IMG/VR virus record: IMGVR_UViG_3300031787_000134 | Coordinates: 1 to 59,681 of that record | Length of the DNA: 59,681 nucleotides | Origin: a virus | Lineage: Duplodnaviria; Caudoviricetes | Strand: one strand, 5' to 3' | In this document: one piece after another, positions 17,135 through 59,340 of the stretch | Layout: every line of letters starts with the position of its first letter | Position numbering within the stretch: position 1 is the stretch's first letter | The notes under the pieces: generated by a model | Databases searched by the model: none | Seen by the model: only the letters and a program-made list of their open reading frames with translations | What the model was told of the DNA's origin: nothing | Made by a program: the position numbers and the translations under genes

Positions 17135-17204
17135 GGAACGAGCCCCCCATGACGGGGGGTTAGCATAACCGGGGTAGCAGCCCCACAGAAAGGTCAGTAA
17201 AATT

Positions 17205-41063: not shown

Positions 41064-41570
41064 CTACTTGAAAAAGATTACGTCGTCCAGCGGGACGAGT
41101 AGTTTCTTATCGGCGTTATCGGCGTGGAACTTTAGTAATTTTTCTTTGGGCACGATATAGCCTAGTGTGGTGTAGCCTTTGTTCCTTACCGGACATGGCC
41201 TGAAGGCCGCGAGGTTTGCCTCGAGGTACTTCACTAGAGCGGCCGTACAGAAGACAAACAACTCGTCAGTCTCGGCGAACCAGTAGAGGTAGTACGTAGC
41301 TCCATGAGCTGCGGCTTGCCAGGGTCCACCGGGCTTACCGGCCCGCTCGGGGGTGGCCTCGACGGACCACCTCTCCATAAACAAGTTCGTGCTCTTGCTA
41401 TAGAAGTCGGTCTTCAATTCTAGAATGGCGCGAGACCACTTCACTTGAAGGTCGCCTTTTCGCCCATCGGTGCGAACAATCGCACCTTGACCATACCGTT
41501 CCAGGAAGTCCTTCTCGGCAGCTTTGCCCTTCTTTAATTGGGCCGCCATACTAAACGTCTTGCTTTTCAT
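41064..41570 (-). CDS. PD-(D/E)XK-family nuclease
   Basis: GD...ELKTD...NLFME motif as in small phage restriction-like nucleases. Confidence 0.6.
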   Translation of the reverse strand: MKSKTFSMAAQLKKGKAAEKDFLERYGQGAIVRTDGRKGDLQVKWSRAILELKTDFYSKSTNLFMERWSVEATPERAGKPGGPWQAAAHGATYYLYWFAETDELFVFCTAALVKYLEANLAAFRPCPVRNKGYTTLGYIVPKEKLLKFHADNADKKLLVPLDDVIFFK

Positions 41571-44786: not shown

Positions 44787-44972
44787 TTATCCCGCGGAGC
44801 GGGGCAGCCCATGTACCTTATCGACATAATCGGGATGAACCTTTACACTTACTATTCCGGGCCGCCCAATGAGGGTATACACAAGGCCGTACACTTCTTG
44901 TTGGGTGTCTGCATCGACCTCGTAGTCAGCTACCTCGCCCATGGCGTTACGAGCCGTTAGTAGTATCTTCAT
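44787..44972 (-). CDS. hypothetical protein
   Basis: 61-aa ORF with GAGGTGG RBS. Confidence 0.5.
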   Translation of the reverse strand: MKILLTARNAMGEVADYEVDADTQQEVYGLVYTLIGRPGIVSVKVHPDYVDKVHGLPRSAG

Positions 44973-46280: not shown

Positions 46281-46300
46281 GCTGCCCTTTCTGACGTGCC

Positions 46301-46328
46301 GCAAAGGGCATCCTCGATGCCCGTTACA
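46301..46328 (+). repeat. dispersed hairpin element (AAAGGRC-stem-loop-GYCCGWTACA)
   Basis: GCAAAGGGCATC-CTC-GATGCCCGTTACA. Confidence 0.8.
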
Positions 46329-46334
46329 AAGTAC

Positions 46335-46362
46335 TTGTCGGCTGAACGGCTAAAATACTTTA
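46335..46362 (-). promoter_or_regulatory. sigma28-type promoter
   Basis: TAAAGTAT...GCCGACAA (TAAA-N16). Confidence 0.6.
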
Positions 46363-46371
46363 GCTTTTTAT

Positions 46372-46779
46372 TTAGTCTTCAGGCAAGGAGAGGTGTTTCA
46401 ATAAGTCCTCCCCCACCTGCTCCAACAGCTCTTCCACTGCATGCTCAAAGGATTGCACAATGATTTCTTCTACTTCATCCGGGATGACAGACGCGACACC
46501 GTTGACGTACAGCACAGCGTGTGCCCATTCGTGGACAAGGGTTGTCCACTGCTGGCGCCGAGTCAAGTCCTTGCTAATTCGGATTCTCCGATACAATCCT
46601 ACCGTATCACCGAGTACGTTTTCCTCGTCGAGGCTTGCCATCTCCACTCTGAACGTCCTCCCCAACACCCGCACTTCGTCCGGTAGTACCGGCTTCAATC
46701 CACCGGGCGAGACTGATGGCGACCCATCCAATTTCAATGGCGTCTTCTTTGTCTCCCTTTTTGTATTCTGGTCGGACAT
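46372..46779 (-). CDS. HExxH zinc metallopeptidase-like protein (ImmA/IrrE-like)
   Basis: TLVHEWAHA...EE; start uncertain, overlaps the upstream gene. Confidence 0.6.
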   Translation of the reverse strand: MSDQNTKRETKKTPLKLDGSPSVSPGGLKPVLPDEVRVLGRTFRVEMASLDEENVLGDTVGLYRRIRISKDLTRRQQWTTLVHEWAHAVLYVNGVASVIPDEVEEIIVQSFEHAVEELLEQVGEDLLKHLSLPED

Positions 46780-47188
46780 AATTCTTCCAAGACGCGGGGT
46801 GGATTCCCAGTACGTGGGAACTTGTAGTCGAGCATAACACAACTCCAACCGCTTTGAGAAGACTAGATATGGCGTTTTGATTGAAGCCACTGGTGGCGGG
46901 AATATCTTCGTAAACTAGCACGTCAACTTTGTACTCACTGCACAGGGTACGCAATGCGTCCCCGAGCCGACGCGCCCTCTGCCATAGTTCCAAGTGGGAA
47001 CCGCCGGTATGGATAATGCCGCTGTCAATTAGTTGGCCACCTTGGTAGTAGGCCCAGCCGGGGGAAGAGGAAGTACTCCCGATACTGGGGTCAACTGACA
47101 GGACCCCGCCCCATACTAGGGGCCCCTTCAGTTTGTCTACATTCTCGTACAGCTTGGTCTTCTTCCCAATTTCAGATACTGATTTCAT
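46607..47188 (-). CDS. RuvC-like Holliday junction resolvase
   Basis: LSVDP...GWA...VYED...P..WK...DA catalytic pattern. Confidence 0.75.
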   Translation of the reverse strand: MKSVSEIGKKTKLYENVDKLKGPLVWGGVLSVDPSIGSTSSSPGWAYYQGGQLIDSGIIHTGGSHLELWQRARRLGDALRTLCSEYKVDVLVYEDIPATSGFNQNAISSLLKAVGVVLCSTTSSHVLGIHPASWKNYVRPEYKKGDKEDAIEIGWVAISLARWIEAGTTGRSAGVGEDVQSGDGKPRRGKRTR

Positions 47189-47445
47189 TGGTGAATCTCC
47201 CCGTCGATAGTACATAACCTGACTTGGCCAGCCACTACCCTCTGCCCTACCTGCTCTACAGTATGAACCAAATCACACTCCATCCTGGGCCAAGTGAGCC
47301 AGACCTTTGTGCCGGGTAGTCCGAGTTGAACACGGGCGGTGCCCGAGATGAGGTACTCTTCACCACGAATCTGCATATGAAGCAGGTGGTTGTACTCGTC
47401 GCCGTCCTCTTCAACCATATCGATGTGGACATAGTATTCGTTCAT
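47185..47445 (-). CDS. hypothetical protein
   Basis: ATGA-coupled on both sides. Confidence 0.55.
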   Translation of the reverse strand: MNEYYVHIDMVEEDGDEYNHLLHMQIRGEEYLISGTARVQLGLPGTKVWLTWPRMECDLVHTVEQVGQRVVAGQVRLCTIDGEIHQ

Positions 47446-47660
47446 TGGTAAAAGTCCTCTTCTTCGTCCGTACTAAACTTATTATTCGTGGTATCCAAGG
47501 TACCAACCGTAGGTTGGAGGCCCGGTTCCCATCCGGTTCTGGTATAGGCACGGCCCCCGTCAATAAAACATTTCTTGCAGTCACAATACCGGAAGTCGTG
47601 TCTACTCTTAGACCAAATGACGGTCTCGCAGACCGGGCACTTTAGTGCTGATACTTTCAC
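47442..47660 (-). CDS. small zinc-finger protein
   Basis: CxxC...S..RHDF..CxC...IDGG motif common in phages. Confidence 0.7.
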   Translation of the reverse strand: MKVSALKCPVCETVIWSKSRHDFRYCDCKKCFIDGGRAYTRTGWEPGLQPTVGTLDTTNNKFSTDEEEDFYQ

Positions 47661-47810
47661 ATGTCACTCCTAGCCCACATAATTGTGTACTTGCCCAGCA
47701 TGTGAACCAAATATAAAGGCCATGTTACTGCAACCAAAAAGGAGAACAGGGACAGTACTAGTAGTCCGACCGGGAAGTAAAATATCCACCATAGGGGATG
47801 AGCTGATATC

Positions 47811-48035
47811 TCAAATCTCATCTTCCTCTCCTCCGATGCGCGTATAGTCGAGGTCAGCTAGTAAGTCTCTCGCAATCAAGATGGCAGTATCAACCATCTC
47901 AGCTGAGGACGCGTCGTCGGGGGAACGCATCACCACGGAAGGAAGTACCAGACTTGCTGCGGTGAATAGTCTGTCTCTGTACTCCTTGTTAATCTTTCTC
48001 TTTTGGTCCGCTCTTGATTTGATGTAGTTGCTCAT
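47811..48035 (-). CDS. hypothetical protein
   Basis: GGAG RBS; ATGA overlap with the upstream gene. Confidence 0.55.
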   Translation of the reverse strand: MSNYIKSRADQKRKINKEYRDRLFTAASLVLPSVVMRSPDDASSAEMVDTAILIARDLLADLDYTRIGGEEDEI

Positions 48036-48535
48036 TTGCCGACTCTCCCAAACATGTTGTTGACTAACCGGTCCCATTTCTCTTCTGCAATATCTCCGGG
48101 TAGGAGGTAAGTGTTCATGATATCTTGACCCTCGTCATAATGGTCTAAGTTCAGCGCGCAATGTCCGAGCTCGTGGTAGACCAAGGTCATCCTATCCGCC
48201 GCGCTAGCCCGGTCCCAGTACGGCTTCAAGAACGAAACTGTCCAAGGAGCTTGACAGTAGCCGATAACGTTGTCTCCTAAGGGAGACGGGAACTTGTCCT
48301 CGAAGATAGCCTTCCGGGTCCGGAGGCAAGGAACGCCTCTCTTTATCGCATCTTGGGAGAAAGCCTCGATTTGGGGAAACAGTCGTTCGTTGAACATGTA
48401 TACTATACTGTCTACAGTACACGGCTGGGGTCCATTGATACGGCGTTCAACTATATCAGTCTTACACGCGAAAGCAGACCCGCACGCGGGGGACAATAAA
48501 GTAATAGCTAGTAGGTATTTTTTCATATGTAACAT
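48032..48535 (-). CDS. exported matrixin-like zinc metalloprotease
   Basis: Signal peptide; HELGHCALNLDH plus downstream 'IM' Met-turn. Confidence 0.7.
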   Translation of the reverse strand: MLHMKKYLLAITLLSPACGSAFACKTDIVERRINGPQPCTVDSIVYMFNERLFPQIEAFSQDAIKRGVPCLRTRKAIFEDKFPSPLGDNVIGYCQAPWTVSFLKPYWDRASAADRMTLVYHELGHCALNLDHYDEGQDIMNTYLLPGDIAEEKWDRLVNNMFGRVGK

Positions 48536-48543
48536 GGCCTCCC

Positions 48544-48569
48544 TGTATCGGGCACTACGTGCCCTTTGC
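48544..48569 (-). repeat. dispersed hairpin element directly 5' of an RBS
   Basis: GCAAAGGGCAC-GTA-GTGCCCGATACA then GGGAGG. Confidence 0.85.
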
Positions 48570-48580
48570 ATACATGTTTC

Positions 48581-48608
48581 TTGTCGGCAGAACGTAAAAA
48601 TAACTTGA
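48581..48608 (-). promoter_or_regulatory. sigma28-type promoter
   Basis: TCAAGTTA...GCCGACAA (N16). Confidence 0.55.
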
Positions 48609-48614
48609 GTACTT

Positions 48615-48642
48615 TGTAACGGACACCGGTGGTGTCCTTTCC
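48615..48642 (-). repeat. dispersed hairpin element
   Basis: GGAAAGGACACC-ACC-GGTGTCCGTTACA. Confidence 0.85.
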
Positions 48643-48691
48643 GACTGGCACAAAGGGCTGACCGAAGGTCAAGCGACAACGCAGTTATCCG

Positions 48692-48919
48692 TTACCGCGT
48701 GTCGTATCCGCCACATATGACCCAGTAGCTCAAATGCTTTCGCCTCTCGACACTTCTAGCACACGGCGAGTTGGGATATAATTCGGGACAGTGATGCTTG
48801 GCACGGGCTACAGCAGACCTATCGGCTGCTGTTTCCTTTTCCCCGGGGGGCAGTATCAACTTAGTCTCTGAACAGGCGGTAAACGCTACCCAAAAAAATA
48901 CTTCGGTCGCCACATTCAT
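48692..48919 (-). CDS. small putative lipoprotein
   Basis: Hydrophobic N-terminus and FTAC; Cys-rich. Confidence 0.4.
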   Translation of the reverse strand: MNVATEVFFWVAFTACSETKLILPPGEKETAADRSAVARAKHHCPELYPNSPCARSVERRKHLSYWVICGGYDTR

Positions 48920-48940
48920 GAGAATCTTCCTGTGAGAATG

Positions 48941-51900
48941 TTAGTCTTCTAGTTTAATGCCGGCCAAAGTCTTGGCCACTGCAGCACTGCCCTTTAATGG
49001 GCAAGTGCCTCCTAGTATTCTATTCAATTCTGCGTAGGCGTCCACTTCCATTATTCGCTTCGCCACTTCGACTTGCTCGTCTGGTACCTCGATGATACTT
49101 TCATCGTGCCAGTCCATCACGATGGGGGTCCACTGTATCTTAGCCTCAGTCAAAAGTTGAGCCGCAATTCTGGAGTATAACTGCAACAAATCGTGACCGG
49201 TACTTTGCACCTGGCGATTTAGTATATCTTTCAAGTACTTATCGTCTATGCAGATAGGGCGACCATACCCGTTTTCAATCCAACCACCATTCGCTCGCCA
49301 CTCATCGCGGAGCCAGTCCACGTAATTGAGGACGCCTTCTTTGGCGGCCATAAGAGAATTGTGCATCTCCTCCACTTCGTCGAGGGACATATCCACGCCG
49401 TTAAGGGAGAGTATCTTCTGTTTCTTCTTTACTCCCGAGCCGTAGTTATCCGATAGGATAAGGAGCTTCGCAATGCCGCGCTCCTTCTTGAACGCTTTCT
49501 TTGTTGCGTCCATCGCCTCGACCGAAGGATTGTACGGGTCATAGCCAAGCGACGTTAGCTTCGGTCCGATGCCCGCCATCATACTACCGTAGAACAAGTA
49601 GATGTCATTCTTCTTGGCGCCTGGCCCGTAGAGGGCGAGCAAGTTCTTATCTTGCGATAGCTCCGCAGTCACCACCATCTCCAAGGCATTCACATCACAG
49701 TCAACAAAGCTATGGCCGGGCCGACTAACAAAGCCCGAGAGGGTACCCCTAGTCTTGGGACACTGCGATGTCACGTAAGTACTCGTGCCCCGGCGCACTA
49801 ACAAATGTTCCGTTTCCACGCTAAGACAATAGACCATTCCATCATATGTCTGAGTAGCTACATGAGACTTCTTGTATTCCCGATGCGAGCCTTTTCGGAT
49901 GTATAAGGAGTAGGCTAGTGGTCTCTTGAACTTGCGGACCCCATACCCGTGGCGAACAAGCAATGCTTGGATAGAGTCAACAACGTCTTCGTGAATACAA
50001 GTAAATTCAAAGGCATCTTTAGTTGTGCCTCGCTTATGTCCATCCCAAAAGGATAGCGCTTCCACAAAAGTTTCTACTTGGTTATCCCCGAGAACAGACA
50101 AATCAAATTTCTTGTCGGCTGTCAATAGGGGATGTTCAAATTCAACGCGGTACCAAGAATGGACGCCTCTAGTACTGACGTGACTGGCGGGAATTCCAAC
50201 CAACTCCATAAACTTTTGTATCTTTCTGTCTCTCTTAAATCCGAACCGCCACATATAAGGATTCTTTACCCGCGCACTGGAGCCGTCAGCTTGGACAGCG
50301 GCGGCCATCCATATGTCGCGCTCACTGAAGAACGACTCGGTTGTGGTACTGGGACGGATGCTGGCATGCGCCATGCACTCCTTGGTTCGGAGCTTGTGAA
50401 TGTCGGATGCTGTTGTAGTAACCCGTCTGGTTCGTTCGGTTTCGGCGGCGTGCTGTAGGTCACCGATTAGTAATAGCCGGTGGTCTGGAGTTACAAGTAG
50501 CGGGGTGTTATTAGCCATCCCGATAGCGACCATATCCCCCGAGTAGTGTCTTTGTGTTGTGGCTTGGACAGGACCCCACTGACCAAACAATGTATCTGGT
50601 TGAATGGTCCAGACCAATTCACCTACTTGTAAATCCTTGATTAGTTTCCACCCAGACGGAGTTAGTGCTTCGGTATCGGGAGCAAAACACTGCTGCAGAT
50701 TGGGAGCCTTACCAGCCAGTCGTCCAGTCACAGTGCCGGGCATTTTGAAGGAGGGGTGTATCGTAGAGCGGTGCTCTACTCTCTCGACATAGTCCGAGAC
50801 ATAAGATAGTTCCTTCACCTTCAAGGCGCGCCCGATGAGGATGTGACCAACATCGCCCATCGACTGTAATGCGTCCTCACTAATGGCTGGCATCCCGCTC
50901 TCGGTTTGAAGCAAGACTTTGTGCTTCAGCTTCTCGTACATCAGCCACCGCAAGTGGTCTCCGGATTGCAAGTTGAACGAGTAGCCTGGCTCAATTCCGA
51001 GCTCTATCCTGTGGCGCTTGGCTTCCCAGTTTTGCCACACCTTACTTTCCTCAGGAAGCATAGCTTCTAGCGCAGCCCACTTCTCCCAGTTCTTGCTTAC
51101 CGTTACCCCGTCCTTTAAGAAGCGTGGTGGTTCCTTTCGTTCCTTCTTCTTCTTGTAGCGGGCCGGCTCCGTGGCGAGGAACTCCGCTACTTTGGCCTGC
51201 TCGAAAGCGCGGACGTGCGGGGCGACAAGTGCGTGCTCCCTAAACGTCTGTTCGCTGTCTGCAATCCCCGCCTCAAGCTCCGTTGCGTAGGCGGTCCAAT
51301 GCTTCCTGTCCGTCAGGATACCAGCAATCTTTTGGTCGATGTGTACCTTCACATGGGGAAGGAAGTCATTTCGGTGGTAATCGCCGAGTGCGGGGAACCG
51401 TTTCACGATAGGCAAGAGATGCTCTGTGTAGAGGAGGTATGTAGCCTCGGCATCGAGGACGCAGTACTTACCGAGTATCTCGGGAGGGGACCGCCACATC
51501 TCGCCCTTCATCGGTGCCTTGTTCTGTTTACAGTAGCCGTTACTGACCAACCACTCGTCTAGTTCAGTTTCATTGGTGTTGGTCCACATCAGAACGTCGA
51601 CCATCGCCTCTTTAAGACCCCACTTCTGGCCCTCCCAGCCTTCACTAGCGCATTGCATGTACAGGCCGAAGGTGCAGGCGAGCCAGTCGGAGTGGACGCC
51701 TAAGTCCCTCCGAATCCATCCCCCATCGAAGTAAACGTTATGGGCCAGCAAACCGCGGTGGATTAACAATAGGTCGGTCAGCTGTTGTATCGACTCGTCT
51801 GATAGTTGGTCCATCGACAGATAACAACTACCCTTGTCCCAAGACAAGCCGACGCCTACTACGTACGCTTCACTGTCGGGAAGGGAGTAATCGTTACCTC

Positions 51901-52075
51901 GTGTTTCGAAGTCTACTGCGACCACCGCTGCTTGGCTGGCTGACAGAAGTAACGCGGAGGTCTCCGTTTCGCTGGGGCATACAAGTTGATACGACCGACC
52001 CACCCTAGCAGGTGTGGGGCGGGGTTCCACGAGCACGAAGCGGGGATGGGTAGTCAATGTAACGTGGTCAGACAT
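48941..52075 (-). CDS. polA: family A DNA polymerase (3'-5' exonuclease + polymerase) containing an intein
   Basis: Exo motifs DFET, HNVYFD, YCVLD; TVTGRL, PNLQQ, motif A (DVNALE), B (R.IAK...NYG), C (HDE). Confidence 0.92.
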   Translation of the reverse strand: MSDHVTLTTHPRFVLVEPRPTPARVGRSYQLVCPSETETSALLLSASQAAVVAVDFETRGNDYSLPDSEAYVVGVGLSWDKGSCYLSMDQLSDESIQQLTDLLLIHRGLLAHNVYFDGGWIRRDLGVHSDWLACTFGLYMQCASEGWEGQKWGLKEAMVDVLMWTNTNETELDEWLVSNGYCKQNKAPMKGEMWRSPPEILGKYCVLDAEATYLLYTEHLLPIVKRFPALGDYHRNDFLPHVKVHIDQKIAGILTDRKHWTAYATELEAGIADSEQTFREHALVAPHVRAFEQAKVAEFLATEPARYKKKKERKEPPRFLKDGVTVSKNWEKWAALEAMLPEESKVWQNWEAKRHRIELGIEPGYSFNLQSGDHLRWLMYEKLKHKVLLQTESGMPAISEDALQSMGDVGHILIGRALKVKELSYVSDYVERVEHRSTIHPSFKMPGTVTGRLAGKAPNLQQCFAPDTEALTPSGWKLIKDLQVGELVWTIQPDTLFGQWGPVQATTQRHYSGDMVAIGMANNTPLLVTPDHRLLLIGDLQHAAETERTRRVTTTASDIHKLRTKECMAHASIRPSTTTESFFSERDIWMAAAVQADGSSARVKNPYMWRFGFKRDRKIQKFMELVGIPASHVSTRGVHSWYRVEFEHPLLTADKKFDLSVLGDNQVETFVEALSFWDGHKRGTTKDAFEFTCIHEDVVDSIQALLVRHGYGVRKFKRPLAYSLYIRKGSHREYKKSHVATQTYDGMVYCLSVETEHLLVRRGTSTYVTSQCPKTRGTLSGFVSRPGHSFVDCDVNALEMVVTAELSQDKNLLALYGPGAKKNDIYLFYGSMMAGIGPKLTSLGYDPYNPSVEAMDATKKAFKKERGIAKLLILSDNYGSGVKKKQKILSLNGVDMSLDEVEEMHNSLMAAKEGVLNYVDWLRDEWRANGGWIENGYGRPICIDDKYLKDILNRQVQSTGHDLLQLYSRIAAQLLTEAKIQWTPIVMDWHDESIIEVPDEQVEVAKRIMEVDAYAELNRILGGTCPLKGSAAVAKTLAGIKLED
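49763..50689 (-). mobile_element. intein (309 aa) with atypical Ser-Gln C-terminus and degenerate LAGLIDADG domain
   Basis: NLQQ|CFAPDTE...TPDH...VYCLSV...VTSQ|CPK; AAVQADG and LSFWDG blocks. Confidence 0.88.
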
Positions 52076-52084
52076 ATTAGCTCC

Positions 52085-52112
52085 TGTAACGGACAGCGGT
52101 GCTGTCCTTTCC
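52085..52112 (-). repeat. dispersed hairpin element directly 5' of the polA RBS
   Basis: GGAAAGGACAGC-ACC-GCTGTCCGTTACA then GGAG and ATG. Confidence 0.85.
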
Positions 52113-52310
52113 GGCGTGGTTGTTAAAGGCGCTCCACAAAGTATACTAGCATCAACAGCACTAGCGTAGCAGTAAGCACATACAACAAGCCAGTTAACAT
52201 CGACTCACCCCCACTAAACCACTTAAATATTAAGTACTTTACTCGTTGGTAGGAGCGTTCACGTAAGTAGTTCCCGCCAACGCTCCCGTCGGAGAGCTAA
52301 GGCACAAATA

Positions 52311-52337
52311 AGAAAGGGCACTTTAGTGCCCGAGACA
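52311..52337 (+). repeat. dispersed hairpin element (variant)
   Basis: AGAAAGGGCAC-TTTA-GTGCCCGAGACA then GGAG. Confidence 0.7.
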
Positions 52338-52410
52338 GGAGGGGGAGCGCTACTTCCCCCAGTGTCGCCCGCTCGAAGAGCGACTACAAACTAGGTTTCT
52401 TTACACCTAG

Positions 52411-52719
52411 TTATGCTCTCTTCTGTTCTGGTGCGGGCTTAATCATAACCACGTACAGTGGTTTGCCACCAGCCACTTCTTCTTCGCTGTTCTGATAGAG
52501 GTCAATGTAGACACGTTGACCTGCTTTGATGTCGGTCTCGATGGTGGTAGCGACCGAAGCAACGGCCTTGCTCTTCTCGGACTTGGGTTTGAAAAGACCG
52601 GTCCGGAGGAGCGATGCAATCTTTTCCTTTACACCACCAGCGGGGCTGGCAGGACGGGGAGCTGCACCTGCTGGACGACCACCAAAACGGTTACCAGAAG
52701 ATTGATTGTTGTACGCCAT
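52411..52719 (-). CDS. hypothetical protein (possible ssDNA-binding)
   Basis: GAGG RBS; own sigma28-type promoter; biased codons; function is a guess from position. Confidence 0.5.
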   Translation of the reverse strand: MAYNNQSSGNRFGGRPAGAAPRPASPAGGVKEKIASLLRTGLFKPKSEKSKAVASVATTIETDIKAGQRVYIDLYQNSEEEVAGGKPLYVVMIKPAPEQKRA

Positions 52720-52774
52720 GACTAGACACCTCACTTGATACGCGGCGACATTGCCGTCGTTACTTACATACCAT

Positions 52775-52802
52775 GTATCGGCAAACTGAGTAAATTACTT
52801 TA
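52775..52802 (-). promoter_or_regulatory. sigma28-type promoter
   Basis: TAAAGTAA...GCCGATAC (TAAA-N16). Confidence 0.65.
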
Positions 52803-52826
52803 GCCCTATTTTCAGTTTGCCTTGAC

Positions 52827-52856
52827 CACCAGCACCAGCACCAGCACCAGCACCAG
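52827..52856. repeat. (CACCAG)5 microsatellite
   Basis: Five perfect hexamers. Confidence 0.9.
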
Positions 52857-52865
52857 GAACACACA

Positions 52866-53171
52866 TTAGTTTAATCCGGTTGGTTTGTCCGGAGCGGGAC
52901 TACTGTCCCCTATCAAATCAAACGCTTCTTCGAGTAGGCCGTAAATGGTATCCCTAGCCCGGTCGACTTGATTCTCGGGCACCATGTTTGCGATACAAGT
53001 GGCCAACATCTCGGTCAAGATGGTCATCGTGGCGTTGTGGCCAGCCAACTGACTAGTCGCGTTGGTCCAATACAGCAGGGAATCAAGGGCTGCTTCTTTG
53101 TAGTAGGTATCTAGCTGGTCTGAGTCACCAGTTTCCATCCTACTTATCGAAGAGTTTTTTAACTTCGTCAT
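52866..53171 (-). CDS. hypothetical protein
   Basis: GGAG RBS before MTKLK. Confidence 0.5.
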   Translation of the reverse strand: MTKLKNSSISRMETGDSDQLDTYYKEAALDSLLYWTNATSQLAGHNATMTILTEMLATCIANMVPENQVDRARDTIYGLLEEAFDLIGDSSPAPDKPTGLN

Positions 53172-54102
53172 GCCACTTCTCCCATTTGTTTTCGTACTTA
53201 TCACAGATATCAACCAAAGGACAATAGTCACAATCGCTGTAGCCCTTGTTCTTACCACTTGGTTTGAGCGGAGCTGGCCTGGGACCGAGAGCTTTCCTCT
53301 CCCCCATATTCGAGACAAACTCATAGTACCTCTCGATATCGGAGACAGTCAACACAGTCTTTGTAAAAACTCCATCAGCCGTATCATGACTGGGTGACTC
53401 AAGGCGATATTGAATCGTCCCGTTACTGTCGAAACCAATTTCGTAAATGGTAGTATGTGGTAATACTTTTTTAGGTTCATTTTTTTCATTGACTTCTACC
53501 AAAGGGTGGCCGGGAGGAAAGAACTTCTTACTCCACTCCGGCATAGTGAAGTCGGTATACTGGGTATACACTAGTCGGTATGGGACACCCAACTTCCAAC
53601 TGTAGTGGGCAGCCTGTAACAAGTGCTTCATTTGGGGCGTGAGTTCAAATGACACTTCCCGTGCGGTCCACAGGGAGCAGATGGCTTTGTGCTCGATACC
53701 AAGGACTGGCTTCCCGTCAGCGTGGCAGAGGACCATGTCAGGTCGGCCAGTCACGTTGGTCCCGTTGGCAGTCTGCCACTTGATGGGAATCTCCTCTTCT
53801 TGCTTGATGATACCCGGCCAGCTTCTCTTTACTTTATCGACCCATATTACTTCGTTCGCTTTACCAAGCTCGAACATAATGAGTCGGTCCACGCTCGGGG
53901 GGTCTATCTCAACCCCGCCGAACGAGCGGAGATAAGCGCGGCGGTGACACCCGCCTACCACATCTCCGCCCTTAGTCATCGCACCCGAGTCCCCGGCCCG
54001 AAGGTTGCCCAACTTGGCAGCTTCTCCAGCGGCGTGCTTGTCTCTGTCATCGGACATTCCTGCCCAGAATAGTGCTGTCAAATTGAGCTTCATATTAATC
54101 AC
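53140..54102 (-). CDS. Cas4-like PD-(D/E)XK exonuclease
   Basis: N-terminal Cys (GCHRR), GRPD...EHK, Q...Y and C-terminal CDYCPLVDIC (1+3 Cys Fe-S pattern); no CRISPR array. Confidence 0.75.
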   Translation of the reverse strand: MINMKLNLTALFWAGMSDDRDKHAAGEAAKLGNLRAGDSGAMTKGGDVVGGCHRRAYLRSFGGVEIDPPSVDRLIMFELGKANEVIWVDKVKRSWPGIIKQEEEIPIKWQTANGTNVTGRPDMVLCHADGKPVLGIEHKAICSLWTAREVSFELTPQMKHLLQAAHYSWKLGVPYRLVYTQYTDFTMPEWSKKFFPPGHPLVEVNEKNEPKKVLPHTTIYEIGFDSNGTIQYRLESPSHDTADGVFTKTVLTVSDIERYYEFVSNMGERKALGPRPAPLKPSGKNKGYSDCDYCPLVDICDKYENKWEKWHDEVKKLFDK

Positions 54103-54331
54103 TCCCTACTTGGTTCAAGTACACCCAAGCTCTTTCCTTGGGGGAAAGTTTCACCAGCTCGGGATTGCTATATCCTACCACCCACCCGATGATGTAGGCC
54201 CCATCGGGGCCGAAGCCCGCGATGTGCCACAACTTTCTACTGTCCTGATGACGGGCTAGGAACGGAGTCCGGTGCAATCTAAAAAGTTCAAGTAGACTGT
54301 ACTGGGTCGGAGTCGCTGGGTTGTAGTCCAC
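54095..54331 (-). CDS. hypothetical protein
   Basis: AAGGAG RBS. Confidence 0.5.
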   Translation of the reverse strand: MDYNPATPTQYSLLELFRLHRTPFLARHQDSRKLWHIAGFGPDGAYIIGWVVGYSNPELVKLSPKERAWVYLNQVGSD

Positions 54332-54509
54332 TGCCGTTCTCCTTTGCTTGCTGTTTCATCATCTGTTCCGCTCTGTCAATCACGTCTCTCATATATCTCT
54401 GCATGGCGAGTTTGGCGATACTATCAACCGGCATCCCAGCAGCGTCGGACAATTGGCGGGCTAGTTCTGCTTCATCACCATGTAACTTGAAGGCTAGACG
54501 TAGTCTCAC
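54288..54509 (-). CDS. ribbon-helix-helix-like small DNA-binding protein
   Basis: Basic beta strand (MRLRLAFKL) followed by two helices. Confidence 0.45.
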   Translation of the reverse strand: MRLRLAFKLHGDEAELARQLSDAAGMPVDSIAKLAMQRYMRDVIDRAEQMMKQQAKENGSGLQPSDSDPVQST

Positions 54510-55219
54510 TTATTGACTCCATTCGTGATAAATTGTTCGTGGATATAGACAATTTGATTGTAGCCGAACAACCCGCCGAAGGCGGAGGTATCAAGGGCCG
54601 GCTTCTCGGGGTACAAGTTACTCACGCTGTTAGTGACCTTGGTAAAGAATCCAGGTGCCGTTACTAGTAGATTGTGCGCTTGGTGGAGGGTCTCATTGTA
54701 AAAGTGCATCAAGATATCGGCTTCGCTCATCGAGAGGTGGGCACGCAAATCATGCAATGCGACTTCGTCGGCTTGTTGTAATTGGGTAGCTAAGTTGCTG
54801 GCCAGTTGTGCAGTGACCACACCTTGCGCGAAGATACGGACAGGATGCCACAGCAAGAAGCTATGTGGAGTAGAGTATCTCTCATCGCAAAAGAGCAGCA
54901 ACTGAAACGCCATGCTCGCAGCCAAGCCCCTTACAAAACACCTGAAGTGGACACCTTCACTCTTGAGTTGAACCATCTTGTCAACTAAAAAGCTACCGGC
55001 TATTACACTCCCGCCAGGACTAGAGATAATGATGTCGATATCCTTTCCGGTCTTAGCCAACGCGTCCATTGCATTCAGCATCGGGCCGGCGATATTGTCC
55101 GAGATAACCCCGTTCAAGACGATGGTTCTTTCCGGGACAAGTTCCACCTCGGTCTTCGCTCTTGCGAAAGTAGACAAAAACAAGGAAGCTAACAAGATTA
55201 GAAACTTCATTACAAACAT
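54506..55219 (-). CDS. ClpP/crotonase-fold serine protease with signal peptide
   Basis: ISSPGGSV, AASMA (catalytic Ser), LWHP (His); N-terminal MKFLILLASLFLSTFARA. Confidence 0.75.
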   Translation of the reverse strand: MFVMKFLILLASLFLSTFARAKTEVELVPERTIVLNGVISDNIAGPMLNAMDALAKTGKDIDIIISSPGGSVIAGSFLVDKMVQLKSEGVHFRCFVRGLAASMAFQLLLFCDERYSTPHSFLLWHPVRIFAQGVVTAQLASNLATQLQQADEVALHDLRAHLSMSEADILMHFYNETLHQAHNLLVTAPGFFTKVTNSVSNLYPEKPALDTSAFGGLFGYNQIVYIHEQFITNGVNK

Positions 55220-55851
55220 CTCCCGAGGTAAGAGTTGACGCGGAGAACATACTCCTGCGTCTCTTTAGATAAGGTACCGGTTTGAATGAGCCGTGTCAAC
55301 TGGGCATACCCACCATTATACAGCACCAAAGCTAAGGTACGATTGCCGTCCACGTAATCGAGGTAATACTTGAGAAGACACGTCCCATACTTGACATTCG
55401 CTCGGTTATCCATTAACCTCGCTACTAGAGTCTCGTCACTCACCCCCCGGGCATAAGGCAAGCGGCACTGGATGGCTGCTTCCTTTGCCCCTATGAGTGT
55501 AACTTGCATCAGGCCGTACGCTCCCGCTCCAGAGACTGCATCTCTGTTGAAGCCCGATTCAGCTGCGACGACAGATGCCGCCAGCTTGAGGAACGTGGTA
55601 GACGTATCAACGGACTCACTACCGAGTAAGAACATCGCGGCTTTTACCTGCTCGGGGGAAACAGCCCGGCCAATGGCCAGCTTCTCCCCACACTCGTGCC
55701 ACGACAACAGCTCCGGAGACCAAGGCAAGAAGTCACCGCTTCCCGCCTTTATCTGGGTCTCGGCCATAACCGGACCGGTCACCGCGACCGTGGAGATTAT
55801 ACTCCCTAGTAACTTTACGATTATTGTCTTCACGGAATTTTTTAGCTGCAT
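55210..55851 (-). CDS. soluble lytic transglycosylase (SLT domain)
   Basis: AESGFN..AVS.AGAYGLMQV...YNGG...ETQEYV; start uncertain. Confidence 0.9.
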   Translation of the reverse strand: MQLKNSVKTIIVKLLGSIISTVAVTGPVMAETQIKAGSGDFLPWSPELLSWHECGEKLAIGRAVSPEQVKAAMFLLGSESVDTSTTFLKLAASVVAAESGFNRDAVSGAGAYGLMQVTLIGAKEAAIQCRLPYARGVSDETLVARLMDNRANVKYGTCLLKYYLDYVDGNRTLALVLYNGGYAQLTRLIQTGTLSKETQEYVLRVNSYLGRCL

Positions 55852-56188
55852 CTTTCTTCCTCTTATACTCCGAGGCTAGCGCCTCGGTGTCGAGCGTGCT
55901 GGTTTCAGACTTGTCTTCTTCTCTTTGTACTATGGCGCGGCTGCCTGCTAGTTCATTTCCAGTATCGGCGAGGTACTCATTCTGCTTCCGGACCATGTCC
56001 TTGAGTTCGCCCATGGTCTGGTTAATCTTGGCTAGCTTCTCTTGCAAAGCGGCTTGTTTGGTGGCGGTGGGGTCTAAGAGACCCCCGGGCCGGGTTGCGG
56101 GTGGTTTGTCAAATTGCTCCTTGACAATCTTGCGGGTACGCTTCTCCCGTATCATCGGGATAACGTTGCTGGGCTTGTCCTCGCTCAC
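55733..56188 (-). CDS. hypothetical coiled-coil protein
   Basis: AAGGAGG RBS; charged. Confidence 0.55.
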   Translation of the reverse strand: MSEDKPSNVIPMIREKRTRKIVKEQFDKPPATRPGGLLDPTATKQAALQEKLAKINQTMGELKDMVRKQNEYLADTGNELAGSRAIVQREEDKSETSTLDTEALASEYKRKKDAAKKFREDNNRKVTREYNLHGRGDRSGYGRDPDKGGKR

Positions 56189-56290
56189 AGTCTGCCCTCC
56201 TTCCTTGCTCTGTTGATACGCTGATTCAGATTGTACACTAGTCTCTTCCGAAGTTTCTTTTCGGGTTTCATTGTTGCGCCTTTACCTGGT

Positions 56291-56569
56291 TTAGTCTTCA
56301 TTGTGAAATCCTTTGTTGGTGGCAAGGTAATATGCTTCTAGTGTGTCTAGTCTCTTGACAACTTCAGCTAAGTATTCATCCTTCTCTCGCTGCCGTTCGG
56401 CTAAGTCCTCAGCTACTGCGGCCACGATATCGGGCCTCTTGTCGAGAGCATCCGTTAGGATGTCGAACAGCGCTTGCGCGCTGTCGGCATTGGTAATGCC
56501 TTCCCGATATAGAGCGTCAGTTAATCTGGCTGCGAGTTGGATACTGGAAGTGATTTCGTTGGTCTTCAT
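56291..56569 (-). CDS. hypothetical protein
   Basis: GAGGAG RBS, TAATG coupling. Confidence 0.6.
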   Translation of the reverse strand: MKTNEITSSIQLAARLTDALYREGITNADSAQALFDILTDALDKRPDIVAAVAEDLAERQREKDEYLAEVVKRLDTLEAYYLATNKGFHNED

Positions 56570-56778
56570 TACAGAATCTCCTCACTAAAGGCGGCGTGGA
56601 CCGCGGTGTAAACCGCTTTTACCTGGTAAGGGGGAGCATCTTTTAGTGCTCGAAGGATAGCCATCTCCACCTCGTGTGCCGCGTCAGAGGAGCAGCCAGC
56701 TAATTCGCTGACCGAGGCTGCCAGTAGATTGGCGACACTGTCTACTTGATATTGATAATCAGTATCGTTGCTGTTCAT
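56569..56778 (-). CDS. hypothetical protein
   Basis: GAGG RBS. Confidence 0.55.
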   Translation of the reverse strand: MNSNDTDYQYQVDSVANLLAASVSELAGCSSDAAHEVEMAILRALKDAPPYQVKAVYTAVHAAFSEEIL

Positions 56779-56785
56779 ATCTGCC

Positions 56786-56998
56786 TCAGAAAGGGGTGTT
56801 AATAATGGGAGCTACTTCGGTAGGCTCCTCGTCTGTAAAGACGAGATGGATTGGGTACATCGGGACATCGTCTCGGGTGACTATGTCCAGCTTCTGGACA
56901 AGGACATCGGGTATGCCCTCGACATTGCTGATAAACAAGTCCCTCTCCCATTCAGTATCGAAGTACGCGACATTGCTAAATCCCGGTAAGTCTCGCAC
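56786..56998 (-). CDS. hypothetical acidic protein
   Basis: AAGGAGG RBS. Confidence 0.55.
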   Translation of the reverse strand: MRDLPGFSNVAYFDTEWERDLFISNVEGIPDVLVQKLDIVTRDDVPMYPIHLVFTDEEPTEVAPIINTPF

Positions 56999-57001
56999 GG
57001 C

Positions 57002-57175
57002 TCAATCCTCCTTAGCATAATTGGTAAAGTGATACTTGACTTTGACTGGGTATACTATCCTGCCGTCTTCGGTTTTCTCGGCCAACAGCTCCGCTGGTAT
57101 ATTCTCTTCGGCACACTTCGCGATAAACTTGAGGGCATCTTCTTTGGAGTCGAGAAAGAATGTTTCGGTCTTCAC
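57002..57175 (-). CDS. hypothetical protein (possible paralog of 58688-58852)
   Basis: AGGGAG RBS after hairpin element; shares DG..VYPV motif. Confidence 0.55.
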   Translation of the reverse strand: MKTETFFLDSKEDALKFIAKCAEENIPAELLAEKTEDGRIVYPVKVKYHFTNYAKED

Positions 57176-57186
57176 GTTCACTCCCT

Positions 57187-57212
57187 TGTATCGGGCACTT
57201 CGTGCCCTTTGC
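57187..57212 (-). repeat. dispersed hairpin element directly 5' of an RBS
   Basis: GCAAAGGGCAC-GAA-GTGCCCGATACA then AGGGAG. Confidence 0.85.
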
Positions 57213-57219
57213 AATCTTG

Positions 57220-57558
57220 TTATTCTTCCCCAGTTGTTGGCCGGGGATAGTTCTCATGAGTTACAGTAACCGCCTTTACCTGGTCCGGGATAATCGTCTT
57301 GAGTCCGCTGTCGCCCTTCTCCTCCCGATAGTTCAATTTTGTGGCGAGGATAGTGAGCAGCTGCGAGAGCATGATTTGGTCCAAGTATGGGATGGTCCTG
57401 TAAATCACAGTACCGGAAGCGTATTCTACTTTGACTCTCGCCCATTTGAGGTCTCTCCTAGCCGCGCGATACGCCCTAGCAAAAGAAAAACTCACCTTCA
57501 CTGCTGTGTACCCTAGCAACGCTAGTCCGCCATAGATTAGGATAGTACCGATACTCAT
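57220..57558 (-). CDS. membrane-anchored hypothetical protein
   Basis: N-terminal TM helix; AGGAG RBS. Confidence 0.55.
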   Translation of the reverse strand: MSIGTILIYGGLALLGYTAVKVSFSFARAYRAARRDLKWARVKVEYASGTVIYRTIPYLDQIMLSQLLTILATKLNYREEKGDSGLKTIIPDQVKAVTVTHENYPRPTTGEE

Positions 57559-57749
57559 TTGTTTGGCTCCTGTTCATTGAGAAAGTTCGCAATTAAATTA
57601 GCTAGCTCGTCCGCTTTTTTTAATAGGCGCCTATCCCCATTGTGCTTAATCTGAATGCATAGACCCCGGTTTGCGTGTCCATGTGTATTGTGGACGCCAA
57701 TACTTCTTGCATCTATATCTACTGTATCCGTGTTTTTATACCAAAACAT
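57555..57749 (-). CDS. hypothetical protein
   Basis: GAGGTGG RBS. Confidence 0.5.
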   Translation of the reverse strand: MFWYKNTDTVDIDARSIGVHNTHGHANRGLCIQIKHNGDRRLLKKADELANLIANFLNEQEPNK

Positions 57750-57750
57750 A

Positions 57751-58077
57751 TTAGACCACCTCGCTATTGCTATATTGTTCCATGAAATCGTTCAGTTCCC
57801 CTTCGTCGTAGTATCTGCCATCTAGCTCGACTACGTCCATGTTATCAATGTAAGTCAGGACTTCTTGGCGGTACGCAGTCGGGTCCACCTCGCGGAGTAC
57901 TTGAGACGGGGAGTAAGTGTAGGAACCGATAACAACTTCGGGCAGGGTGTCGTCCATTAGTTCATCGTGTCTCTGCTCTAGCTCTGCTTCAGTCCAGAAG
58001 CTGACCGTTTCGAGCGCAGCGTCTAACAGTTCCGGTCTGGCATTGAAGAGTTGGCGGGCTTTGTTGTACGTTGACAT
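57751..58077 (-). CDS. highly acidic early protein (DNA-mimic candidate)
   Basis: About 24 D/E versus 7 K/R in 108 aa by hand count; AAGGA RBS. Confidence 0.6.
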   Translation of the reverse strand: MSTYNKARQLFNARPELLDAALETVSFWTEAELEQRHDELMDDTLPEVVIGSYTYSPSQVLREVDPTAYRQEVLTYIDNMDVVELDGRYYDEGELNDFMEQYSNSEVV

Positions 58078-58290
58078 AGCTAATTCCTTTCAGTCATTAT
58101 CTTTTCTGCGAAGCATTGACTTTTTATTGGGTCAAGGAGGGGACACCGTCCGTGGTGTCTTGTAGGCTGGCCTTGACTCGCGGTAACGGACAACCGCAAG
58201 GCGGTGTTCCTTGACGATTTGTCCCATAGCGGATATCATGGAGGTATCTTGATTGCTACTAGCAGCATCCTGCTGCGTTGTATAACTATC

Positions 58291-58317
58291 TTATCGGCAC
58301 TTTTTAGAAAAACTTGA
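58291..58317 (-). promoter_or_regulatory. sigma28-type promoter
   Basis: TCAAGTTT...GCCGATAA (N15). Confidence 0.7.
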
Positions 58318-58320
58318 GAA

Positions 58321-58668
58321 CTATTTTTGGCTATCTGTGTCGGGCATTGGAGCACTCTTGACTGTCGTGCTGTCTGTATTGACGAGAGGCAATATTAGCC
58401 GGGTTGAGTACTTTGTGGCGATACTATCTAACTCAGCTTTTTCGCCGTAAATAAACCCACGTACCCAGATATCAACCGCAGATTCAATCAAACTTACAGT
58501 TATTTGAGTCTCACTTGTACGGACGCACTTGAGACTGTATGGCTTGTTCTTCGATGATTCCGGTATATAGATTTGAGGAATCAATTCGTCTAGTGAATTA
58601 AAATCTATCAATTCAGACTCTTCGCCGGTCATATCGTAAAAAGCTGGATAATACCGTTTGTACTGCAT
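58321..58668 (-). CDS. hypothetical protein
   Basis: 115-aa AT-rich ORF. Confidence 0.5.
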   Translation of the reverse strand: MQYKRYYPAFYDMTGEESELIDFNSLDELIPQIYIPESSKNKPYSLKCVRTSETQITVSLIESAVDIWVRGFIYGEKAELDSIATKYSTRLILPLVNTDSTTVKSAPMPDTDSQK

Positions 58669-58687
58669 GGGAATGCCCTTTATCTAG

Positions 58688-58852
58688 TTAGTCAAGACTG
58701 TACTCAGTGAATTCGACGGGGTATACCGTAGTCCCGTCTTTACCTATTATAGGCCGGAGCGCGATAGCCCGGCAGTCGGGACGGTTGCCATAGGTGGCGA
58801 GGAACACCAGTCTCGCCGCCTCGCTATTGTAGTATTGGATGGAGCGTTTCAC
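58688..58852 (-). CDS. small hypothetical protein (54 aa)
   Basis: Read manually; GTGA overlap with the upstream ORF; GAGG RBS. Confidence 0.45.
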   Translation of the reverse strand: MKRSIQYYNSEAARLVFLATYGNRPDCRAIALRPIIGKDGTTVYPVEFTEYSLD

Positions 58853-59025
58853 GCTTCGGTACCTCGCTGTTCGTTGTCGGGGGGAGTCACGGTGTCGCAG
58901 CTGAGACCCCGCGCCTTTACCTCGCTATGGAACTCGTCGGGGGTGATGATTCCCGTGTCAAGGAATACCTCTAGCTCCACATAATTATACCGAGATAGGT
59001 CTAACGTGTAGTTAATTTTGGTCAC
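58849..59025 (-). CDS. small hypothetical protein (58 aa)
   Basis: Read manually; AGGAG RBS directly after a hairpin element. Confidence 0.5.
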   Translation of the reverse strand: MTKINYTLDLSRYNYVELEVFLDTGIITPDEFHSEVKARGLSCDTVTPPDNEQRGTEA

Positions 59026-59035
59026 GGTGGTCTCC

Positions 59036-59062
59036 TGTATCGGACGCTAGCGCGTCCTTTGC
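59036..59062 (-). repeat. dispersed hairpin element directly 5' of an RBS
   Basis: GCAAAGGACGC-GCTA-GCGTCCGATACA then GGAG. Confidence 0.85.
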
Positions 59063-59078
59063 GACTAGTTGCTTTTAC

Positions 59079-59291
59079 CTATTTGTGTTTAAACCAGTAA
59101 ACCGTCTTCATGGAATGGGAATCGTATTCGGCCGCAATATTAGTGGCCTTTACCTGTTTTGCCATCGCCATAAGCGCGTGATATTCATCACTGAATACTT
59201 TGTATCCGTTCAGTAAAACATAAATAGTATTCTTGTCTTTTCTGTCCCAGAAATAGTTTCCGTCGTTTAAGAATTCATAAAAGTTTTGCAT
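59079..59291 (-). CDS. hypothetical early protein
   Basis: MQNFYEF...; AT-rich ORF. Confidence 0.5.
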   Translation of the reverse strand: MQNFYEFLNDGNYFWDRKDKNTIYVLLNGYKVFSDEYHALMAMAKQVKATNIAAEYDSHSMKTVYWFKHK

Positions 59292-59312
59292 AATTTGCCC
59301 TTTACCTGTTGT

Positions 59313-59340
59313 TGTATCGGACATCAAGGATGTCCTTTCC
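59313..59340 (-). repeat. dispersed hairpin element
   Basis: GGAAAGGACATC-CTT-GATGTCCGATACA. Confidence 0.85.

Follow-up and report, generated by a model that had tools for sequence, protein, structure and literature searches.

The stretch of DNA analysed here, called the window at its full length of 59,681 bases, is a virus record rated complete by CheckV (IMG/VR record IMGVR_UViG_3300031787_000134) and stems from an uncultivated freshwater phage. It carries exactly eight copies of a hairpin of 26-28 bases that combines fixed flanks with a covarying stem. We found that the pairing of this stem is maintained by selection, with fixed flanks and a fixed stem base beside a loop and a stem top that are free to vary. 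The hairpin matches no described family; it belongs to the kind of regulatory cassettes known from phages, with a putative mechanism. Tentatively, and with somewhat less than even confidence, we regard it as a transcribed element that would act in the RNA at cistron boundaries, where it would protect or process mRNA ends and insulate ribosome-binding sites, and that would in addition provide short homology for the shuffling of gene cassettes. In this genome the structural genes, which include a P22/SU10-type portal and tail fibres, are encoded on the plus strand from 1 to ~39 kb, and the early and replication genes on the minus strand from ~39 kb to the end, running on across the ends of the record.

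Copies, pairing and conservation of the hairpin

Read from 5' to 3', the unit comprises G-N-(A/C)-A-A, a stem that opens with GGRC and closes with GYCC around a loop of 3-4 nt, and finally G-N-T-A-C-A. The copies in the window are listed below, followed by two degenerate elements; P boxes are promoter look-alikes described in the next section, SD denotes a Shine-Dalgarno sequence and UTR an untranslated region.

46301..46328, plus strand: inverted hairpin, stem GGGCATC/GATGCCC, loop CTC, 38.7 bits; read on the minus strand it follows P box 46334-46362 at a distance of 6 nt and belongs to the 5' UTR of gene 46280-46107
48544..48569, minus strand: hairpin, stem GGGCAC/GTGCCC, loop GTA, 37.4 bits; 10 nt downstream of P box 48580-48608, abutting the SD of a lipoprotein-like gene (ATG 48526)
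48615..48642, minus strand: hairpin, stem GGACACC/GGTGTCC, loop ACC, 39.4 bits; 5 nt upstream of P box 48580-48608
52085..52112, minus strand: hairpin, stem GGACAGC/GCTGTCC, loop ACC, 37.1 bits; abutting the polA SD (ATG 52075)
52311..52337, plus strand: inverted hairpin, stem GGGCAC/GTGCCC, loop TTTA, flank GAGACA, 35.6 bits; on the minus strand the hairpin is followed by TTTCTTATTT
57187..57212, minus strand: hairpin, stem GGGCAC/GTGCCC, loop GAA, 35.9 bits; 7 nt past the stop of gene 57558-57220, abutting an SD and GTG 57175
59036..59062, minus strand: hairpin, stem GGACGC/GCGTCC, loop GCTA, 37.5 bits; abutting an SD and GTG 59025
59313..59340, minus strand: hairpin, stem GGACATC/GATGTCC, loop CTT, 40 bits; 22 nt upstream of ATG 59291, with the 16-nt direct repeat TACAACAACAGGTAAA on either side
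58182..58213, minus strand: degenerate hairpin of 3 bp, a 2x2 internal loop and 5 bp; within the long 5' UTR of gene 58077-57751, ~80 nt downstream of P box 58290-58317
48651..48697, plus strand: expanded, degenerate hairpin-like element, resembling 49164-49210 of the related genome G002 by sequence comparison only

An earlier note on this DNA had described the eight copies, and their coordinates, strands and stems were reproduced here. A covariance model built from these copies and run over the whole window with filters off scored them at 35.6-40 bits; the next match, inside polA, reached 13.9 bits, and no match was obtained on positions 1-46,300. The pattern AAAGGRC-N(7-13)-GYCCGWTACA matched seven times in the window versus 0 times for its reversed control, and a stricter pattern matched four times, with 0 matches in each of 100 shuffles. 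For 8/8 copies the proposed hairpin is the minimum-energy structure, with z values of -1.55 to -2.65 for the single sites. The stems are 6-7 bp long and the loops comprise 3 nt in five of the eight copies and 4 nt in the other three, no loop position being conserved on either strand. All eight copies are intergenic, in agreement with the gene-boundary location described before, and fall inside 46.3-59.3 kb. At the gathering score, Rfam delivered 0 matches for the whole window, and in E-value mode a single match on 45500-59681, which lies off the hairpin. Thus the element corresponds to no described Rfam family, a point that the earlier note had asked to be checked. The test for an intrinsic terminator failed as well: sense copies run into G(A/T)TACA and have no U tract, and only the inverted copy at 52311, read on the minus strand, was called terminator-like.

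Relatives were collected by polA and pattern searches, which yielded four further complete genomes (G001-G004, 57-61 kb; the window is G000 in the genome comparisons) and a dozen viral or metagenome fragments. Before counting, we removed viral contigs (L075, L083 and others) that matched the pattern and shared no protein with the phage in the fetched stretch; these are probably chance matches. The hairpin occurs eight times in the window, five times in G002 at 23 bits or more (plus two weak copies), three times in G004, once in G001 and not at all in G003, the G001 and G003 counts having been made with filters off. The sole G001 copy is devoid of the 5' flank. That the hairpin is missing from the late region, as had been observed before, is correct for the window; in contrast, G004 and the related contigs L054, L068 and L073 have one late-gene copy each. 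The degenerate copy at 58182-58213 gives a mixed picture, too: it stays below the E 10 cut-off of the covariance model, but it is the positional ortholog of a well-formed copy in G002. Both are located downstream of a P box and upstream of a gene of 108/109 aa, and this arrangement of P box and hairpin in a long 5' UTR is kept in G002 (P box 45588, hairpin 45670).

The stems of 23 distinct copies, taken from the window and from sequences related to it, comprise 146 Watson-Crick pairs, 2 G.T, 1 A.C and 1 C.A, corresponding to 97% Watson-Crick pairing. In the model-based alignment 93% of the cells pair, compared to 25-53% after sliding of the partners. At position 3 of the stem, 13 sequences have A-T and 8 have G-C, and the orthologous hairpins upstream of a 70-aa gene (59313 in the window, 44784 in G002) are two compensatory double changes apart. 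Flanks and stem base are more conserved than stem top and loop among the 23 copies. Since the stem tops differ and nevertheless pair, with compensatory changes between orthologs, the pairing is under selection, as the earlier note had proposed for the structure.

Sigma-28-type boxes and their relation to the hairpin

Via the word CCGATA we found a second sequence family, the P boxes, of the form (C)TAAAGTT, 11-12 nt and GCCGATAA(G). It is present in 4/4 genomes searched and recurs in several fragments. Employing a weight matrix made from G001-G003 sites only, a cut-off of at least 18 bits and 30 shuffles as control, nine sites were detected in the window versus 0.07 per shuffle. Eight of them are on the early strand, and the remaining one precedes a tail-fibre gene:

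630..657, minus strand: P box, TAAAGATT-n11-GCCGATAA, 29.9 bits; first on the early strand
17107..17135, plus strand: late-region P box ahead of tail-fibre gene 17205-20036; kept in G001 and G002
41106..41134, minus strand: P box, weight-matrix match
44817..44845, minus strand: P box, the weakest at 18.2 bits
45807..45835, minus strand: P box, weight-matrix match
46334..46362, minus strand: P box with -10 variant GCCGACAA, 26.4 bits; next to the inverted hairpin
48580..48608, minus strand: P box with -10 variant GCCGACAA, 24.0 bits; flanked by two hairpin copies
52774..52802, minus strand: P box upstream of a 102-aa gene
58290..58317, minus strand: P box, 30.9 bits

These sites match the E. 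coli sigma-28 (FliA) promoter consensus TAAAGTTT-n11-GCCGATAA given in passages of PMC2859248. The same passages show the -10 variant GCCGACA, found in two of the window's P sites, for the functional aer promoter (PMC2859248). Searches for a phage sigma factor with PF04542 and PF04545 (Sigma70_r2 and r4) gave no match in 4/4 genomes. Judged by their sequence, the P boxes are likely the early promoters, and they would be read by the sigma-28 of the host. We found no report in the open-access literature searched of a lytic phage with early promoters fitting the sigma-28 consensus, and a lytic phage relying on a host FliA-type sigma factor would be unusual. Stable hairpins close to the 5' end are widespread among P-box transcripts, with z < -1 in the first 40 nt of 16/29 and a mean z of -1.09.

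The geometry of the hairpin differs from that of the P boxes. From AAAG to CCG it spans 16-18 nt in the window and up to 25 nt in the contig L126 (2443), versus 19-20 nt in P boxes, and the corresponding spacer measures 8-10 nt in the window and up to 17 nt in relatives, compared to 11 nt for sigma-28 and 11-12 nt for the P boxes of this phage. The part of the hairpin corresponding to the -35 region reads (C/G/A)AAAGG(G/A)C, and in 8/8 copies its first base is never T; a T-to-C change at this base left the E. coli aer promoter with 23 of its 223 units of activity, about a tenfold loss (PMC2859248). The -10-like end is GATACA in copies 59313, 59036, 57187 and 48544, GTTACA in 52085, 48615 and 46301, and GAGACA in 52311. 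The base ahead of the CCG is C or T and not G, and the A that is invariant in P boxes, the central A of the -10 box, can be A, T, C or G. Besides, the spacer of the hairpin is a perfect palindrome, a further difference from sigma-28 promoters. The earlier note had remarked on a loose resemblance to a sigma-28 promoter, against which it held the variable spacing. Its reservation was justified, as the hairpin fits a sigma-28 promoter neither by its -35 region nor by its spacing; true sigma-28-type boxes do exist at nine other sites. A sigma-54 or sigma-70 promoter was rejected by inspection, boxes and spacing being unfit, and only the GGGCAC stems resemble a -24 box. An operator in double-stranded DNA for a dimeric protein was rejected as well, because the half-sites GGRC/GYCC stand at distances of 7, 8, 9 or 16 nt and the centre is not fixed but covaries.

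Hairpin and P box can serve the same gene. The lipoprotein-like gene is preceded by a P box without the hairpin in G001, G002, L134 and L137, by a P box and a hairpin 7 nt further on in L126 and L129, and by the series hairpin, P box, hairpin in the window. Because a P box is present beside the hairpin for the same gene, the hairpin is an add-on and does not replace the promoter. For gene 46280-46107 the G002 ortholog has a P box without the hairpin. In four cases (48544, the inverted 46301, L126 7170 and L129 6566) the hairpin starts 6-10 nt past the -10 box, which is where the 5' end of the transcript is predicted. In the window, three of the eight copies (48615, 48544 and 46301) are within 5-10 nt of a P box and five are not.

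Another short box, ACAGGTAAA(A/G)G(C/G), occurs repeatedly in 5' UTRs, namely on the minus strand of the window at 59349-59360, 59302-59313 and 59066-59075, and also in G001, G002 and L125. It is situated 7 nt past the P boxes in G001 and 0-3 nt past the hairpin in the window, G002, L125 and G001. This box may be a transcript start region or an enhancer of the ribosome-binding site.

Placement, turnover and neighbouring genes

Counting the window together with its relatives, 24 copies reach at least 23 bits; 20 of them have the sense orientation of the local genes, and 13 of these 20 are followed 0-2 nt further on by a GGAG/GGGAG/AAGGG box and a start codon. The four copies for which contact with an SD had been claimed earlier (48544, 52085, 57187 and 59036) indeed touch a GGAG-type SD with its start codon. 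The same unit of hairpin and SD stands before non-homologous genes, namely polA in the window (52085) and a 72-aa gene in G002 (46857), and GATACAGGAGACC stands before three different genes.

Compared to close relatives, the hairpin appears as a discrete insertion of about 25-60 nt; the cases given here were picked by inspection and do not represent a blind count. Relative to L134 and L137, copy 48544 is an insertion of ~31 nt, flanked by a short CCGAYA duplication, and copy 48615 one of ~60 nt. Copy 52311 separates a conserved terminator stem from its U tract, placed exactly at their junction as a clean insertion of 25 nt, and also abuts a GGAGG that is no SD. Copy 52085, in the window directly 5' of the polA SD, is absent from the same place in L124 and L125. 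The contig L042 is 100% identical to the window over 395 nt and 91% over the next block. It has suffered a 216-nt deletion (L042 9540-9900 versus window 58840-59400) with one end inside copy 59036, which takes most of the 70-aa open reading frame (ORF) and the 5' part of the hairpin, and joins the first codons of this ORF to the SD of the next gene. Moreover, its junction orthologous to that of copy 57187 is without this copy, and L042 has a different hairpin before a different gene. L126 contains one head-to-head pair of hairpins. Within L042 10300-10900, where the contig diverges after window base 58689, it has a P box of its own and an ORF that, judged by eye, bears the signature of an HNH/AP2-like endonuclease. 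Going by sequence, this divergence point suggests homing-type gene turnover beside junctions with hairpins and P boxes.

Assembled RNA contigs from three metatranscriptomes (X18-X20) cover parts of this region. The best-covered piece of the 20 kb compared, 52404-52756, was found in all three at a depth of up to 21. It corresponds to the 102-aa gene just downstream of P box 52774-52802, and one run reads into adapter at 52756, 18 nt beyond the P box, which in strandless data shows presence only. Two runs have contigs that stop at 52404 and 52406, inside the loop of the terminator-like hairpin located behind the 102-aa gene. Contig depth falls about eightfold across the hairpins of 52338-52413, and polA follows downstream without a P box; on account of both, these hairpins look like an attenuator.

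Two conserved hairpins follow the 102-aa gene at 52338-52413 on the minus strand, CTAGGT...ACCTAG with TTTGT and GGGGGA...CTCCCCC; in G002 and L125 the latter has a U tract directly after it. The 102-aa gene itself (52411-52719, minus strand) encodes a glycine/proline-rich N-terminus, has a P box in all four genomes and matched no Pfam or PHROG family. As the gene is located just upstream of polA, its product may be a small DNA- or RNA-binding protein. Directly upstream of its P box, at 52816-52866, a hexanucleotide repeat was found (GCTGGT on the minus strand, at least four units).

Regarding the genome as a whole, the GenBank phage set contained no close relative at the DNA level, and the polA protein gave distant matches only, many via its intein. 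This intein occupies about residues 463-782 of polA (48941-52075, minus strand), and the helicase (41648-44125, minus strand) has another at about residues 41-400, with LAGLIDADG homing-endonuclease domains. The polA of G002 and G003 (734 and 759 aa) and the helicases of relatives (395-479 aa) are free of inteins. The early region also codes for a RuvC-like Holliday-junction resolvase (46607-47188, minus strand), a T7-lysozyme-type amidase (40600-41055, minus strand), the PHROG label of which is 'endolysin; inhibits RNA polymerase', and a ClpP-like protease (54506-55210, minus strand). No tRNAs (0) were detected in the window. At 59538-59681 (plus strand) the 17-bp unit GACGGGTCAGCTACCGC forms ~8.5 perfect tandem repeats that reach the last base of the record. 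This array is situated between hairpin copy 59313 and, across the ends, the first early P box, and may represent an origin of the iteron type, or may have caused the assembly to break here. The near-identical L042 connects base 59681 to base 1 and so shows that the sequence past the array runs into base 1.

Possible functions of the hairpin

Several known elements invite comparison. REP/BIME elements from bacterial chromosomes and the intercistronic RNase III sites of T7 early mRNA are hairpins between genes, which can shield mRNA ends and delimit cistrons. REPs have a fixed flank beside a palindrome and occur in both orientations, but they belong to the host, their stem is conserved and they come with a RAYT transposase, and the T7 sites are much longer, irregular hairpins; stems of 6-7 bp as found here are too short for RNase III. 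In contrast to the REP/RAYT system, the Y1 (RAYT) transposase PF01797 had no match in 5/5 phage genomes. One genome per prokaryote species was scanned for the hairpin (185,579 species), which revealed at least 120 stretches with a single match and no multi-copy genome among the matches listed.

Among the concepts described so far, the PeSL/PmSL elements of T4-like phages come closest. According to passages of PMC4122927, a PeSL unites a sigma-70-type early promoter and a terminator-like stem-loop in one unit that is implicated in modular shuffling. Like the hairpin, PeSLs are described there as short repeats in the intergenic spaces of early, plastic regions beside small ORFs of unknown function, with stem-loops that vary by copy and an association with insertions, deletions and replacements between close relatives (PMC4122927). 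However, the hairpin stands alone in five of the eight window copies and its promoter partner is of the sigma-28 type. Furthermore, its flanks are fixed, it has no U tract in sense orientation and usually touches an SD.

For the mechanism we envision the following. Transcription would start from the separate P boxes, read by a host holoenzyme of the flagellar type (sigma-28/FliA). The hairpin, with its 6-7 G+C-rich pairs and its loop of 3-4 nt, would then be placed 6 nt before the SD or a few bases from the predicted transcript start, where it may block exonucleases, set processed ends and keep the ribosome-binding site clear of upstream structure. The single-stranded flanks (5' G-N-M-A-A and 3' G-N-U-A-C-A) could be the contact or cleavage site of a putative nuclease or binding protein. 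Because the same short unit recurs at many junctions, often together with an SD, it would also give micro-homology for the insertion, deletion or replacement of small early genes. We infer the action of the hairpin as RNA, and what it would do there, from its sense bias, its adjacency to the SD, the joint occurrence with a P box for the same gene, the position at the predicted 5' end, the 5' UTR arrangement shared with G002 and the misfit to promoter geometry. Also in favour are the stable hairpins close to the 5' ends of P-box transcripts in general, the recurrence of the unit of hairpin and SD before non-homologous genes, and the searches of the related genomes that found neither an RNA polymerase nor a sigma factor. 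One RNA contig (X18, 48627-48842, depth 3.6) stops inside the loop of copy 48615, much as the contigs of two runs do in the terminator-like hairpin behind the 102-aa gene, which is a weak hint that the hairpin can mark an RNA 3' end. Among the functions the earlier note had proposed, an RNA processing or translation element consequently fits best and a protein-binding hairpin is still a candidate.

A number of observations weigh against this. G.T pairs (2) are no commoner than A.C/C.A mismatches (2) among the 150 stem pairs, thus there is no sign of strand-specific RNA pairing and a DNA palindrome fits equally. Loops of 3 nt, which are common in this family, typify stable DNA hairpins more than RNA ones. 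Four of the 24 copies are inverted, with equally conserved flanks. The hairpin and the P boxes have AAAG and CCGATACA in common, and the hairpin also contains CCGATAC(A). Two copies in G004 stand immediately ahead of a gene, with a strong intrinsic terminator 17-18 nt before them, a place where a promoter is expected. No RNA-binding or nuclease candidate for the flanks emerged from Pfam and PHROGs scans of ~50 ORFs. The RNA data, finally, are strandless contigs of depth 2-21, the contig that stops in copy 48615 is a single observation, and polA downstream of copy 52085 has no RNA contig cover, stretches without cover being uninformative.

Given the nearly pure Watson-Crick pairing, the 3-nt loops, the inverted copies and the placement past the G004 terminators, a serious rival is that the hairpin is itself a promoter in the form of a DNA hairpin or cruciform, at or near the ACA of which host RNA polymerase starts, perhaps aided by the same sigma-28-type factor or a phage co-factor, and which moves as a promoter cassette. 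We consider this doubtful. It recalls the early promoters of phage N4 as portrayed in passages of PMC4496689, where a hairpin of 5-7 bp with a 3-nt loop combines fixed stem bases with others that are free if paired, within conserved surroundings upstream of early genes. However, N4 has three sites with a conserved purine loop and requires a giant T7-like virion polymerase (PMC4496689), whereas here eight sites with unconserved loops were found and no such polymerase. PF00940, searched in six frames, had no match in 4/4 genomes, but also matched 0/14 control genomes, so that this search is uninformative. In the related genomes, T7-like polymerase motifs were absent outside polA (motif B occurred only in polA), as was the DxDGD motif of two-barrel RNA polymerases. 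Two very large late ORFs, of 1822 aa (23602-29070, plus strand) and 1206 aa (35173-38793, plus strand), matched no Pfam family and gave nothing meaningful in a PDB sequence search; for the former, a virion protein, the nearest entries of the ESM Atlas are crAss-type muzzle-protein clusters (cluster score 0.90, a lead only), so that it appears muzzle-like, not polymerase-like. An N4-like mechanism was consequently rejected, as neither Pfam, in its uninformative search, nor motifs, PDB or ESM Atlas delivered the polymerase. A promoter would nonetheless suit the words shared with the P boxes, the sequence ACAGG that is found 7 nt after P boxes and also ends the hairpin, the situation of polA in the window, which has the hairpin alone between the terminator region and its SD, and the early region's content of sigma-70-like promoters, which is not in excess (19 versus 14.1 +/- 3.4). 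Against it stand the deviating AAAG-to-CCGATA distance, the freedom of the A that P boxes keep invariant, the first -35 base, C or G, of the kind that cut aer activity (PMC2859248), and the P boxes that accompany the hairpin for the same gene. Also, polA of G002 has neither a P box nor a hairpin directly upstream, so read-through suffices. In an improbable version, the hairpin would be a structured-DNA start signal derived from a P box, which the host holoenzyme reads only as an extruded or single-stranded palindrome and for which no phage polymerase is needed; if true, this would be a class of supercoiling- or replication-gated 'middle' promoters moving as a 27-nt cassette.

Similarly improbable to us is an RNA operator, the base and flanks of which are bound by a phage protein like T4 RegA or by host CsrA for translational control. 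The stronger conservation of flanks and stem base, the SD within 0-2 nt of 13 of the 20 sense copies and the dispersed, regulon-like set of genes served agree with it, as does the resemblance of the TACA-GGA junction to CsrA sites pointed out by the earlier note. In contrast, the GGA within the hairpin (five of eight copies) belongs to the paired 5' arm and the one after it is merely the SD of the next gene; copies that are inverted, upstream of a P box or 100 nt from the start do not fit, and the early ORFs scanned with Pfam and PHROGs included no candidate for the binding protein. We hold it for about equally improbable that the hairpin is chiefly a selfish or neutral palindromic insertion, any regulatory effect being incidental, which would spread by micro-homology or template switching to flank-like sites (AAAGG ... 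GGAG). Its clean presence or absence between close relatives, the copy numbers of 8, 5-7, 3, 1 and 0 across five related genomes, the short duplications at 59313 (16-nt repeat) and 48544 (CCGAYA), the contact of inverted copy 52311 with a non-SD GGAGG and the head-to-head pair in L126 would be explained in this way. Yet stem tops that vary and always pair, with compensatory changes between orthologs, argue against neutrality, as does the compactness pressure on a lytic phage genome. The five related genomes encode no transposase or recombinase, and the single matches in cells include no multi-copy source among the matches listed, although one may exist. Finally, a folded single-strand DNA site for site-specific recombination, which would capture small gene cassettes like an integron attC, is very improbable. 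The hairpin with its fixed flanks and free stem, its location between small ORFs of unknown function and the mosaic junctions resemble such a system, and the recombination proposed in the earlier note gains from indels and gene replacements between relatives that end at the hairpin. However, a dedicated single-strand site is unlikely, since the tyrosine recombinase PF00589 (control positive in 14/14) and the Y1 transposase had no match in 5/5 related genomes; in addition, the hairpin is far shorter than attC and the indel boundaries are not at one fixed position.

If our preferred reading, a transcribed cistron-boundary hairpin, is true, this clade of phages would assemble its early operons from two swappable parts, a P box and a 27-nt hairpin cassette that can go before any ribosome-binding site. 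The cassette would be a small insulator or stabiliser of natural origin that comes with its own covariation data, and would extend the idea of mobile regulatory cassettes from T4-like myoviruses, where sigma-70 is employed, to an unrelated lineage of podophages. Separately, a dependence on sigma-28 would couple the expression of phage genes to whether the host is motile.

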